From: Squalus acanthias
Lineage: Eukaryota
Assembly: GCA_030390025.1 (NCBI GenBank)
Contig: CM059432.1
Coordinates: 682,001 to 746,000 of the forward strand
Direction: 5' to 3'
Length of the DNA: 64,000 bases
The notes below the pieces were generated by a model. It saw only the letters and a list, made by a program, of their open reading frames with translations. It made no database searches and was not told where the DNA came from. Shown piece by piece: positions 52,557 through 57,471 of the stretch. Every line of letters starts with the position of its first letter. Positions within the stretch are counted from its first letter, which is position 1. A program made the translations under genes and the position numbers.

Positions 52557-52652
52557 TAATACATAGATACATAGAAGATAGGAGCAGGAGTAGGCCATCC
52601 GGCCCTTCGAGCCTGCTCCGCCATTTAATGAGATCATGGCTGATCCTCCAAT

Positions 52653-55520
52653 TCAGTATCCCGTCCCCGCCTTCTCTCCGTAACCCTTAACCCCTTTTGC
52701 CTGTAGAAATATATCTAATTCCCTCTTAAATATATTTAATGAGCTGGCGTACACTGCCCTCTGTGGCAATGAGTTCCACAGGTTCACCACCCTCTGAGTG
52801 AAGAAATTCCCCCTCATTTCTGTCCTAAATGGTTTAGCCCTTATCCTTAAATTATGTCCTCTAGTTCTGTTCTCACCCGCCAAGGGAAACATTCCTTCTG
52901 CATCTAGTCTGTCTAGACCTGTCAGAATTTTATACACTTCTATGAGGTCCCCTCTCAATCTTCTAAACTCTAGTGTGTACATCCCTAAACTACATAGTCT
53001 CTCCTCATAGGTCAATCCCGCCATTCCTGGTATCAGCCTGGTGAATCGCCGCTGCACCCCCTCCATGGCAAGAACATCTTTCCTCAGATGAGGCGACCAA
53101 AACTGTACACAGTACTCGAGGTGTGGTCTCACCAGTGCCCTGTACAGCTGCAGCAAGGTATCCCTGTTCCTGTATTCCAACCCTTTTGCTATGAAGGCCA
53201 GCATACCGTTTGCCTTCTTGACCGCCTGTTGCACCTGCATGCTCGCCTTCAGTGACTGGTGTACAAGAACACCCAGGTCTCTCTGTACTTCCCCCTCTCC
53301 CAATTTATTGCCATTTAAATAATAATTTGCCCTCCCGTTCCTGCACCCAAGGTGGATAACTTCGCACTTGTCCACATTATAGTGCATCTGCCATTTATCC
53401 GCCCAATCACCCAGTCTGTCCAAATCGCTCTGGAGCTTCCTGGTCTCCTCCTCTGAGCCCACCCCCCCTCCTAGTTTAGTGTCGTCTGCAAATTTGGAAA
53501 TGCTGCATCCGACTCCCTGATCCAGGTCATTAATGTAAATTGTGAACAGCTGGGGACCCAGGACAGATCCCTGCGGTACCCCACTTGTTACTGCCTGCCA
53601 TTCAGAAAATGAGCCGTTTATTCCAACTCTCTGTTTTCTATCTGACAGCCAGTTCTCTATCCACGTCAATACTTTCCCCTTTATCCCATGAGCTTCAATT
53701 TTCCCTGCTAATCTTTTATGTGGGACCTTATCGAAGGCCTTTTGGAAGTCCAGGTACACCACATCTACTGGCTCTCCCCCATCTATTTTACCAGTTACTC
53801 CCTCAAAAAATTCCAATAGATTAGTCAAGCACGATTTACCCTTTGTAAATCCATGTTGACTCTGTCCTATCCTGTCCCCATTTGCTAAGTGCTCCGCTAT
53901 TTCATCCTTAATGATGGACTCCAGCATTTTGCCCACAACTGATGTAAGGCTTACAGGTCTGTAATTACCTGCTTTTTCCCTACCCCCCTTTTTGAATAGT
54001 GGGGTAACGTTAGCTACCCTCCAATCCATGGGCACTGTTCCCGAGTCTAATGAATTCTGAAAAATCATACTTAGTGCATCCGCTATCTCTAGGGCCACCT
54101 CCTTCAGCACCCTAGGATGCATGTTATCAGGCCCTGGGGATTTGTCCGCCTTCAATCCCTTTAGCTTCCTTAACACCATATCCTTAGAGATATTGATTTG
54201 CGTCAGTTCCTCCTTTGCAAATGTCCCTATTTTTCCCGATATCCCAGGGAGGTTTTTTGTGTCTTCCTTCGTAAAGACTGACCCAAAGTATGCATTTAGT
54301 TGGTCTGCCATTTCCTTATTTCCCGTTATATATTCCCCCGTATCTGACTGCAATGGGCCAACTTTGGTTTTCACCAGTCTTTTCCTCTTGATATACTTAT
54401 AAAAGCTTTTGGAGTTAGTTTTTATATTTTCCGCCAGCTTGCTTTCGTAAGCTATTTTGCCCCTCTTGATTAAGCCCTTTGTCCTCCTTTGCTCTATCTT
54501 AAACTGTTCCCAATCTTCCGCTCTGGCGCTTTTTTTGGCTATTTTATACGCCCTATCTTTGGATTTTATGCTGTCTCTAATTTCCCCTGTTATCCACGGT
54601 TGAGTCACCTTTTTAGATTTCCTTTTATGCCAGATTGGTATAAACAATTTTTGCAATTTTGTCATTCTATCTTTAAATGCTTGCCATTGTTTATCTACCT
54701 CCAGTCCTCCCAGGAACGTTGTCCAATCAGACCTACTCAGTTCCCGTCTAATGGCATCATAATTCCCCTTGTTTAAATTCAGGACCTTAGTATCTGAGTC
54801 AATTTCTTCGCTCTCCATTTCGAGTGAGATTTCGATCATGTTATGATCGCTCTGACCCAAGGGTCCCCGTACAACAAGATTACTAATTAGTCCCTTCTCA
54901 TTGCACAGTACCCAGTCCAATATAGCCTGTTCCCGAGTTGGTTCCTCGACATATTGATCCAGATAACCATCCCTTAAACACTCAAGGAATTCCTCCTCCT
55001 CATTATTTTTACTGATTAGGCTATTCCAATCTATATGTAAGTTAAAGTCACCTATGATGACAGCTGTGCTCTTATTGCACGCTTCTCTAATTTCCCTCGT
55101 GATGCCCTCCCCAACCTCTATTTTACTATTTGGAGGCCTATATACCACTCCTATTAATGTTTTTCGCCCCTCGCTATTTCTTAGCTCCACCCATATAGAT
55201 TCTGTATTAACTGAGTTAATATCCTTCCTTTCAATTGCATTTATCCCTTCTTTTACCAGCAATGCTACCCCTCCTCCCTTTCTTTTTTGTCGATCCTTCC
55301 TAAATACTGAATACCCCTGTATGTTAAGCTCCCAGCCCTGCTCACCCTGCAACCATGTTTCCGTAATCCCAATTAGATCATAATTATTAACCTCTATTTC
55401 CACAGCTAATTCATCTACCTTGTTCCTGATGCTTCTCGCATTAAGGTATAAAACCCTCAGGCTTTTTTTATGCTCACATTTTTTATGAATTAGTTTGGCC
55501 CTTTGTTTTTTGTTCCTCAC
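52653..55520 (-). CDS. CR1 ORF2: APE endonuclease plus reverse transcriptase (at least 955 aa, no N-terminal ATG)
   Basis: LYLNARSIRNK, GITETW, GDFN, SDHN, YLDFQKAFDKVPH, GVPQGSVLGP, KFADDTK; uninterrupted. Confidence 0.96.
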   Translation of the reverse strand: MRNKKQRAKLIHKKCEHKKSLRVLYLNARSIRNKVDELAVEIEVNNYDLIGITETWLQGEQGWELNIQGYSVFRKDRQKRKGGGVALLVKEGINAIERKDINSVNTESIWVELRNSEGRKTLIGVVYRPPNSKIEVGEGITREIREACNKSTAVIIGDFNLHIDWNSLISKNNEEEEFLECLRDGYLDQYVEEPTREQAILDWVLCNEKGLISNLVVRGPLGQSDHNMIEISLEMESEEIDSDTKVLNLNKGNYDAIRRELSRSDWTTFLGGLEVDKQWQAFKDRMTKLQKLFIPIWHKRKSKKVTQPWITGEIRDSIKSKDRAYKIAKKSARAEDWEQFKIEQRRTKGLIKRGKIAYESKLAENIKTNSKSFYKYIKRKRLVKTKVGPLQSDTGEYITGNKEMADQLNAYFGSVFTKEDTKNLPGISGKIGTFAKEELTQINISKDMVLRKLKGLKADKSPGPDNMHPRVLKEVALEIADALSMIFQNSLDSGTVPMDWRVANVTPLFKKGGREKAGNYRPVSLTSVVGKMLESIIKDEIAEHLANGDRIGQSQHGFTKGKSCLTNLLEFFEGVTGKIDGGEPVDVVYLDFQKAFDKVPHKRLAGKIEAHGIKGKVLTWIENWLSDRKQRVGINGSFSEWQAVTSGVPQGSVLGPQLFTIYINDLDQGVGCSISKFADDTKLGGGVGSEEETRKLQSDLDRLGDWADKWQMHYNVDKCEVIHLGCRNGRANYYLNGNKLGEGEVQRDLGVLVHQSLKASMQVQQAVKKANGMLAFIAKGLEYRNRDTLLQLYRALVRPHLEYCVQFWSPHLRKDVLAMEGVQRRFTRLIPGMAGLTYEERLCSLGMYTLEFRRLRGDLIEVYKILTGLDRLDAEGMFPLAGENRTRGHNLRIRAKPFRTEMRGNFFTQRVVNLWNSLPQRAVYASSLNIFKRELDIFLQAKGVKGYGEKAGTGY

Positions 55521-55594
55521 CCTTTTACCATTTATTTCTGTCTGCCTTTCACTTTCCTCTATTTCACTACATAGGTTTTTAGCCCCCTGCCATA

Positions 55595-56542
55595 CTAGTT
55601 TAAATGCTCCCGAACTGCTTTATCAAAAATTACCCCGAGAACATCAGTTCCATCTTTGCACAGGTGTAGACCGTCCCTTTTGTATAGGTCACACCTACCA
55701 CAAAACTGGTTCCAATGCCTCAAAAATTTAAAACCCTCCCTCTTACACCAATGCTCAAGCCACGTATTTAGCCTAACTATCCTGTTCTCTGTACTCTTAC
55801 TAGCACGTGGCACTGGTAGTAATCCAGAGATTACTACCTTCGAGGTCCTACTTTTTAGCTTGGCTCCTAACTCCCTAAATTCTACTTGTAGGACCTCTTC
55901 CCTTTTTTTAGCTACGTCGTTGGTACCAACATGTATCACGACAACTGGCTGTTCCCCCTCCCCCTCCAGAATGTTCTGCACCCGCGCCGAGACATCCTTG
56001 ACCCTTGCACCAGGGAGGCAACATACCATCCTGGAGTCTCGGTCGCGACCACAGAAACCCCTATCTATTCCCCTTACAATCGAATCCCCTATTACTATAG
56101 CCCTGCCACTCTTTTTCCCTCCCTTCTTTGCAACAGAGCCAGTCATGGTGCCATGAGCCTGGCTGCTGGTGCCTTCCCCCGATGAGTCATCCCCCCCGAC
56201 AACAGCACCTAAGGCGGTGAACCTGTTGCTAAGGGAGACAACCCCAGGGGATTTCTGCACTACCTTCCTGCCCTTGCTCTGCCTTTTGGTCACCCATGTA
56301 CTATCTACGCTGGCCTTAACCTGCGGTGTGACCAACTCACTAAATGTGTTATCCACAACCCTCTCAGAATCGTGGATGCTCCAAAGTGAGTCCATCCGCA
56401 GCTCAAGGGCCGTCATGCGGTCCCACATGAGCTGCAGCTGGACACACTTCCCGCACACATGGTTGTCAGGGACACAGGAAGCGTCCCTGATTTCCCACAT
56501 GTTACAGGAGGAGCATGACACAGGTCCGAGCTCTACTGCCAT
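55595..56542 (-). CDS. CR1 ORF1: zinc finger/coiled coil plus SGNH esterase-like domain (315 aa)
   Basis: CSSC..CGKC; VIGDSIVRG; HVGTND; DGLHL. Confidence 0.93.
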   Translation of the reverse strand: MAVELGPVSCSSCNMWEIRDASCVPDNHVCGKCVQLQLMWDRMTALELRMDSLWSIHDSERVVDNTFSELVTPQVKASVDSTWVTKRQSKGRKVVQKSPGVVSLSNRFTALGAVVGGDDSSGEGTSSQAHGTMTGSVAKKGGKKSGRAIVIGDSIVRGIDRGFCGRDRDSRMVCCLPGARVKDVSARVQNILEGEGEQPVVVIHVGTNDVAKKREEVLQVEFRELGAKLKSRTSKVVISGLLPVPRASKSTENRIVRLNTWLEHWCKREGFKFLRHWNQFCGRCDLYKRDGLHLCKDGTDVLGVIFDKAVREHLN

Positions 56543-56995
56543 GACTTAACCCTTATATTACTTTTTAATTTTCTAGTTTTAGTTTATTTATTGACTTTTG
56601 TTTTCCCGAAGCTTACTTAGACCAATGTATACTGTACTCCTCTTATTCCTTTTTAAACTAACCAAATCCCACTAGTTTTAGTTTTACTTTCTAGGAAGGT
56701 TTGAGGAAAGTACTTACCAGTTAGTCTTACCTCCCTGGTCTTCCGCTGACTTCCCGGTCTTGTGTCCCCTTGGTCCTACGCCGACTTCCCGCTCCTCCCG
56801 GTTCCTGCCCTGCTGAAAAGAAACTGAGACCAAAAAATTTGTGACCTCTGTTTTTAGACTGCTAAAAGACTAATAGGTTAGAGGAGGAGGGCGGGTGGGG
56901 GTTCCTACTCTGTAGGAACTCGGGTTTAAGCCACCACCCTCCTTAAATGCTGTTCACCTGGGTGCTTCCCACCTGGTCCGCTTCCGGTCTCGTCT

Positions 56996-57471
56996 CTCCC
57001 GACACTGGCCTCTGCAAAAAAAGCCCGCGAAAGTGAGTTTAAATACTCACTGTGCTGCTGCTCTCTCCGCTCCCGACACTGGCCTCTGCAAAAAAAGCCC
57101 GCGAAAGTGAGTTTAACTACTCACTGTGCTGCTGCTCTCTCCGCTCCCGACACTGGCCTCTGCAAAAAAAGCCCGCGAAAGTGAGTTTAACTACTCACTG
57201 TGCTGCTGCTCTCTCCGCTCCCGACACTGGCCTCTGCAAAAAAAGCCCGCGAAAGTGAGTTTAACTACTCACTGTGCTGCTGCTCTCTCCACTCCCGACA
57301 CTGGCCTCTGCAAAAAAAGCCCGCGAAAGTGAGTTTAACTACTCACTGTGCTGCTGCTCTCTCCGCTCCCGACACTGGCCTCTGCAAAAAAAGCCCGCGA
57401 AAGTGAGTTTAACTACTCACTGTGCTGCTGCTCTCTCCGCTCCCGACACTGGCCTCTGCAAAAAAAGCCCG
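56996..57471 (-). repeat. 74-bp tandem array (6 full units plus a 32-bp partial) at the CR1 5' end
   Basis: Units start at 56996, 57070, 57144, 57218, 57292, 57366 and 57440; near-identical. Confidence 0.97.

Follow-up and report, generated by a model that had tools for sequence, protein, structure and literature searches.

How does a ribosome reach the second open reading frame (ORF2) of a long interspersed nuclear element (LINE) when no AUG codon precedes the end of that frame's endonuclease? The question is raised by a full-length CR1 LINE, both frames intact, on the minus strand (57471-52560) of a 64,000-nucleotide stretch of Squalus acanthias DNA (contig CM059432.1, positions 682,001 to 746,000), hereafter called the window. 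How ORF2 is translated from a bicistronic LINE RNA is partly settled, and the worked examples, L1 and SART1, are cases of reinitiation. In the present element, ORF1 ends on the heptamer U_UUA_AAC, and -1 ribosomal frameshifting is best known from retroviruses and coronaviruses. Comparison of sequences leads us to propose that ORF2 is reached by programmed -1 frameshifting, which would give an ORF1-ORF2 fusion of 1296 amino acids. We put the probability of this reading at about 0.8.

The junction was examined first in the window copy. All features described here lie on the minus strand. ORF1 closes with CAT TTA AAC TAG. The heptamer TTTAAAC (55598-55604) covers its final two codons in the phase X XXY YYZ, and the stop codon TAG (55595-55597) follows immediately and becomes part of CTA G.. 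when the -1 frame is read. This frame is shut upstream by TGA TAA (55620-55625), five codons before TTT, and from the slip site it stays open for 983 codons into ORF2. On these points the first-pass annotation of this DNA was borne out. The fusion of about 1300 residues that it had put forward, predicted here at 1296, is supported by the conservation of heptamer and phase described below.

Its description of ORF2 as AUG-less stands for this copy and does not extend to all CR1 families, some of the bird-type ones having an in-frame AUG right after the stop. In the window, the first ATG of the ORF2 frame (54837-54839) is codon 261 and sits right after the S-D-H-N motif (codons 257-260), so that a start there would drop the endonuclease. 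The start chosen by the ORF caller is an in-frame GTG in the linker (55518-55520), where an in-frame CTG is also found, at 55460. Another ATG, one base past the ORF1 stop, is out of frame and shut after 4 codons (55579-55593), and is thus unable to start ORF2. That no AUG of the ORF2 frame comes early enough to include the endonuclease supports frameshifting, as does the late opening of the -1 frame, just five codons ahead of the slip site. As a side observation, the window copy differs from contigs of public runs at two positions, 55579 and 55751. Neither difference shuts a frame, and the short out-of-frame reading keeps its stop with the 55579 variant.

The string by itself is meaningless. 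With at most one mismatch, TTTAAACTAG is found in the window 5 times, no more commonly than in shuffles (mean 4.6), and the case therefore rests on position and conservation. With the codon usage of this element, a canonical heptamer on the final two codons of an ORF is expected with p ~0.002. TTA is a rare leucine codon in ORF1 ends (0-3 of 13-16 leucine codons in each of the six indel-free bird-type loci described below; 3/23 in the window). Two further in-phase heptamers of canonical pattern are present within ORF1, G_GGU_UUC at 56060 and G_GGU_UUU at 55736, and the second falls in a conserved E-G-F motif.

To follow the junction in DNA, metagenomes were scanned with an ORF1 alignment, using patterns drawn from the core of the esterase, so that the C-terminus played no part in the choice. 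Among the 27 loci obtained, 18 stop short of the ORF1 3′ end and 9 cross the junction. We call them bird-type loci because their ORF2 starts resemble CR1 proteins of stork and crane. TTTAAAC stands at the ORF1 end in 8 of the 9, with TAG next in 7 of these 8; the ninth is without the entire segment. In all eight loci retaining it, the -1 frame begins with F-K at the heptamer. The six loci free of insertions and deletions show 63-80% mutual identity over the 90 nucleotides upstream of the heptamer. Downstream, a linker of 37-88 codons is open and in frame in every sequence that reaches the endonuclease motif (five loci and the window).

Three public runs, made up of contigs that are DNA or of unstated kind, hold a second subfamily alongside that of the window. 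It diverges from position 55623 upward. In run X1, none of 32 listed changes falls in 55580-55622, as against 31 in 55623-55820, the list leaving aside a maximum of three differences close to the ends of contigs. Scans of viral contigs, prokaryote genomes, plasmids and phages gave no relatives. The junction pattern did match viral contigs exactly at eight places, which were set aside as chance because no CR1 protein match accompanied them.

Protein databases gave a wider view of the same site. A first homologue search returned 120 proteins, 78 of them with a complete C-terminus (41 close, 37 distant). ORF1 ends in Leu-Asn in 41/41 of the close homologues, and the hosts named for these comprise sharks, rays and skates as well as an alligator, turtles and lizards, among others. 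The distant group, mostly teleost esterase ORF1s, served as a negative control, and just 1/37 has an end compatible with a heptamer. Conservation of the heptamer and its -1 phase across CR1 sequences, which the first-pass annotation had proposed to check, was found in bird-type DNA, in the second subfamily and, at the protein level, in the hosts of the close homologues.

Searching representatives at 50% identity with a profile then yielded 150 proteins, 107 with complete ends. An end tripeptide compatible with an AAC-type heptamer was found in 69/107 of these distant homologues, compared with 0-4/107 at each offset from 1 to 12. The compatible ends are 58 x-L-N, where x can be encoded by NNU, 9 Q-G-N (G_GGA_AAC) and 2 S-K-N (A_AAA_AAC). 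These counts overstate independence. An esterase tree built without tails, from 97 of these 107 proteins together with 5 from fish, unites the G-N and K-N ends in a single clade around a nested L-N protein, which points to a small number of independent switches, two or three perhaps. In 58/59 L-N ends, the residue preceding L can be encoded by a codon ending in U. Gln precedes all nine G-N ends and none of the 59 L-N ends, because CAG GGA AAC is shifty and Gln codons cannot end in U. As far as the sequences tell, then, the end-residue pattern follows codons and not protein chemistry, and the data support the view that distant relatives may switch among heptamer-compatible ends. Three further homologues have R-K-N, T-K-N or S-K-N where the end tripeptide would be expected, and their stop follows after another 10-11 codons.

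Four proteins, P0035, P0060, P0192 and P0328, extend past the ORF1 end as F-K-L. In rays, too, these continuations assign ORF2 to the -1 frame. In P0328, a Hypanus sabinus gene model, the esterase runs into the endonuclease via F-K-L, and this copy has apparently lost one base upstream. Other database ORF2 N-termini (45 of 120 were inspected) are set by the start choice of gene callers and were left unused.

Taken with the phase of the heptamer in the zero frame and the 983-codon -1 ORF, these comparisons point to nucleotide conservation beyond what the protein needs, at the protein level in the case of the G-N and K-N ends. The junction is a genuine and deeply conserved signal, most likely one for -1 frameshifting. 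The anatomy and conservation are observed; the slip, the fused product and the ratio in which it is made are what we infer from them, as follows. The ribosome would start at the ORF1 AUG (56542), and the majority would terminate at UAG, releasing the 315-residue esterase protein. In a minority, Leu-tRNA on UUA and Asn-tRNA on AAC would re-pair one base back, on UUU AAA. The shifted ribosomes would continue through the variable linker into the endonuclease and reverse transcriptase, giving the 1296-residue fusion in a small, constant proportion, as with Gag-Pol. U_UUA_AAC, G_GGA_AAC and A_AAA_AAC are among the four shiftiest heptamers on mammalian ribosomes, according to PMC5009743.

Several observations weigh against this proposal. 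The first concerns RNA structure. No stimulatory fold 3′ of the heptamer was found: folding gave z-scores of -1.8 to +1.3 relative to shuffles (8 folds, 7 sequences), with pseudoknots sought as simple stems only. The window itself gave +0.1 and +0.3, in keeping with the earlier remark that no obvious pseudoknot lies downstream, while six related loci ranged from -1.8 to +1.3 with no common structure. Nor was any stem common to the sequences, or any three-tier G-quadruplex motif in the 8 examined. In the DNA, four of the eight bird-type loci carry an in-frame ATG 2 nucleotides past the stop, which fits reinitiation. Among the proteins, 38/107 distant homologues end in a non-compatible tripeptide, and the nine Q-G-N proteins, sharing one clade, are not independent and inflate the Fisher value. 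The search profile was built on proteins ending in L-N, a slight bias toward such ends, and once similar tails are removed the test for a possible U-ending codon ahead of L becomes modest (1/29, p 0.019). Moreover, the heptamers assigned to Q-G-N and S-K-N ends are deduced from proteins and not read in DNA.

With neither a stimulatory pseudoknot nor a stem-loop found by these searches, we do not file the junction as a classical structure-stimulated signal. The stimulator is the least certain part of the proposal. One candidate, put forward by the first-pass annotation as the source of the pause, is the adjacent stop codon; in the three homologues with a late stop the compatible tripeptide is not next to one. 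The other is a run of G, possibly bound by a protein, that begins 10 nucleotides 3′ of the heptamer (five G at 55583-55587 in the window). A run of five or six G is found at the same place in 8/8 sequences reaching it, with its synonymous positions fixed; besides this fixed spacing, it encodes a Gly that is conserved in the shifted reading. The C-rich 3′ untranslated region (UTR), its second-best pairing site in the window, was considered as a long-range partner and rejected, as 5%, 40% and 16% of segments equal it in three full-length elements. Hairpins upstream of the heptamer were also seen. They differ between families and have no shuffle control behind them.

The alternative that survives best is termination-reinitiation. 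Ribosomes would terminate at UAG and resume a short way on in the frame of ORF2, using an AUG where there is one and any codon where there is none, giving a free ORF2 protein, with the heptamer serving as termination context or positioning the restart. The stop does adjoin the ORF2 frame, and the missing fold and the four AUG-bearing loci just mentioned are what this explanation would expect. There are also precedents, initiation of L1 ORF2 being described as AUG-independent (PMC5009743, PMC1965478) and SART1 using a stop-start arrangement (PMC3708506). However, the restart codon appears free to vary while the heptamer is fixed: across the eight loci the codon 2 nucleotides past the stop is ATG four times and otherwise TCG, TGG, GTG or TCC, and in the window it is TGG. 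Reinitiation does not require an XXX YYY Z string upstream of the stop, it gives no reason for the tripeptide to change as a whole to Q-G-N or S-K-N, and in the three homologues with a late stop the compatible site lies 10-11 codons ahead of it. In the window, no in-frame start overlaps the stop or comes just after it, a test that is blind to the AUG-independent form of L1. We therefore consider reinitiation unlikely as the general route, and in the AUG-bearing families it could operate alongside frameshifting.

A different explanation places the constraint on the protein. Leu-Asn-COOH would be kept for the esterase, the heptamer would be a by-product, and ORF2 would start by internal entry or at a non-AUG linker codon such as GUG 55520 or CUG 55460. 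Both codons are in frame upstream of the endonuclease, and capping of the final helix could be the role of an unchanging dipeptide at the C-terminus. Yet under such a constraint six Leu codons, two Asn codons and the preceding base would all be free, whereas TTTAAAC is invariant in eight loci and the window. Residues E, K, Q, M and W are nearly absent immediately before L (1/59) and common one and two places further back (16/59 and 18/59), and the distant, mostly teleost esterases do without an L-N ending. We regard this explanation as very improbable. Least probable of all, CTAG could be a splice acceptor giving ORF2 from a spliced RNA, or the frame could change at the RNA level through polymerase slippage; YAG at 55597-55595, two donor-like words in the 5′ UTR and the four AUG-bearing loci, where an exon beginning there would open on ORF2, speak for splicing, against which there is no upstream pyrimidine tract, the next ATG of this element is out of frame and the ray protein P0035, reading F-K-L-N, would leave no AG at that place, and slippage finds no homopolymer long enough.

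The remainder of the element is that of an ordinary CR1, as judged by domain content and 3′ end, the sole tree being the esterase tree of database proteins. Its 5′ end is a 74-bp tandem repeat of 6.4 copies (56996-57471, 99% matches), from which the element runs to a simple-repeat tail. The near-identical copies of the unit resemble the monomer promoters of other LINEs, and their near-identity suggests a young element. The remaining 5′ UTR occupies 56543-56995, and no ATG is found from 57480 to 56543; two GTAAG words resembling splice donors were spotted there by eye, at ~56716 and ~56617. ORF1 (55595-56542, 315 amino acids) has a Cys-rich N-terminus, an SGNH/GDSL esterase domain (residues 150-298; PF13472, E 1e-10) and the end H-L-N-stop. 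Among homologues with a named host, the closest belong to sharks and rays. Counted from the slip site, ORF2 (52653-55604, -1 frame) comprises a linker of ~50 residues, an APE endonuclease (54843-55442; PF03372, residues 60-259 of the stop-to-stop frame) and a reverse transcriptase (53352-53984; PF00078, E 2e-31). Curated cut-offs were exceeded by PF13472 in ORF1 and by PF03372/PF14529 and PF00078 in ORF2. A short 3′ UTR (52560-52652) follows; as read from the sequence, it holds an inverted repeat and a TATG-type tail, with no poly(A) and no long terminal repeat (LTR), as in CR1.

ORF1 is present once in the window. Many 5′-truncated fragments of CR1-type and other LINEs lie on both strands between 1450 and 63982, with DNA identity to the element of ~65-83%, and none reaches ORF1. 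Some database proteins deserve mention in their own right. Within the Q-G-N clade, P0204, P0233, P0272, P0218 and P0274 end in F-F-H, F-F-R or C-x-G, and may use another recoding signal. The teleost esterase ORF1s P0062-P0105 mostly end 25 residues past a D-G-x-H motif with a tail that is not heptamer-compatible, and are candidates for stop-codon readthrough. P0009 and P0333, a CR1-type ORF1 and ORF2 filed under Pseudomonas aeruginosa and Carnobacterium, are probably animal DNA within bacterial assemblies.

If ORF2 is indeed reached by frameshifting, the LINE that is most abundant in sharks, reptiles and birds would follow a strategy like that of Gag-Pol, with a fixed ratio of ORF1 protein to enzyme and with the enzyme tethered to a membrane-binding esterase. 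The annotation of CR1 ORF2 would change, because the real product would begin at the ORF1 AUG, and the junction would offer a natural, apparently unstructured -1 site for study. A bolder and distinctly tentative extension, which we hold to be possible rather than probable, is that all esterase-type CR1s, which dominate among the LINEs of most vertebrates other than mammals, make ORF2 as a fusion with ORF1 by -1 frameshifting independent of a fold. A protein on the G-run, either a host G-run binder or the ORF1 protein, would stall the ribosome on the heptamer, and the signal would predate jawed vertebrates and have switched among U_UUA_AAC, G_GGA_AAC and A_AAA_AAC. Were this true with the ORF1 protein as binder, the system would be autoregulatory.

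A full-text literature search gave no report of a CR1 frameshift; its scope left outside the original CR1 papers (Kapitonov and Jurka 2003, Haas et al. 1997, Kajikawa et al. 1997), Repbase and supplements, and those original descriptions or Repbase may mention the ORF overlap. The word frameshift is absent from the covered parts of the CR1 and esterase papers PMC3905857, PMC13343379, PMC4120745 and PMC4316615, a set that includes a 2026 survey. Conversely, CR1 is absent from 300,000 of the 449,034 characters of a frameshifting review that covers HeT-A, TART and L1.

The element was finally compared with known systems, as described in the covered portions of the sources cited. It shares with canonical vertebrate CR1 (PMC13343379, PMC3905857, PMC4316615) an SGNH esterase ORF1, an ORF2 with endonuclease and reverse transcriptase, a short structured 3′ UTR with a simple-repeat tail and many 5′-truncated copies nearby; in those portions the translation of ORF2 is unaddressed. 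With viral -1 frameshifting at U_UUA_AAC (IBV, PMC5009743; human T-lymphotropic virus, bioRxiv 10.1101/469692) and with Gag-Pol, the junction has in common the heptamer, its phase and the fusion of a structural protein to a polymerase. In contrast to the viral sites, that of CR1 has no detected pseudoknot or stem-loop, and it belongs to a non-LTR element without a protease to free the enzyme. A closer likeness in layout, by analogy only, is offered by the -2/-1 frameshifting of the arterivirus PRRSV (PMC4937337), which also combines a lack of obvious structure with a short conserved homopolymer-rich motif and a 10-nucleotide spacer. The PRRSV motif is C-rich and protein-bound, whereas that of CR1 is G-rich and its binder is a conjecture by analogy.

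Among LINEs, mammalian L1 and SART1 (PMC5009743, PMC1965478, PMC3708506) likewise have a bicistronic RNA and depend for ORF2 on an unconventional event at the end of ORF1. Their ORFs are separated or joined stop to start and their ORF2 protein is free, whereas the CR1 frames overlap at a shifty heptamer. In zebrafish ZfL2-1, of the L2 clade and with an esterase ORF1, ORF2 is reportedly translated, probably by stop-codon suppression, in work attributed to Kajikawa et al. 2012. On that account, ZfL2-1 and CR1 would both fuse an esterase ORF1 to ORF2 by recoding, the former by in-frame readthrough and the latter by a -1 shift.

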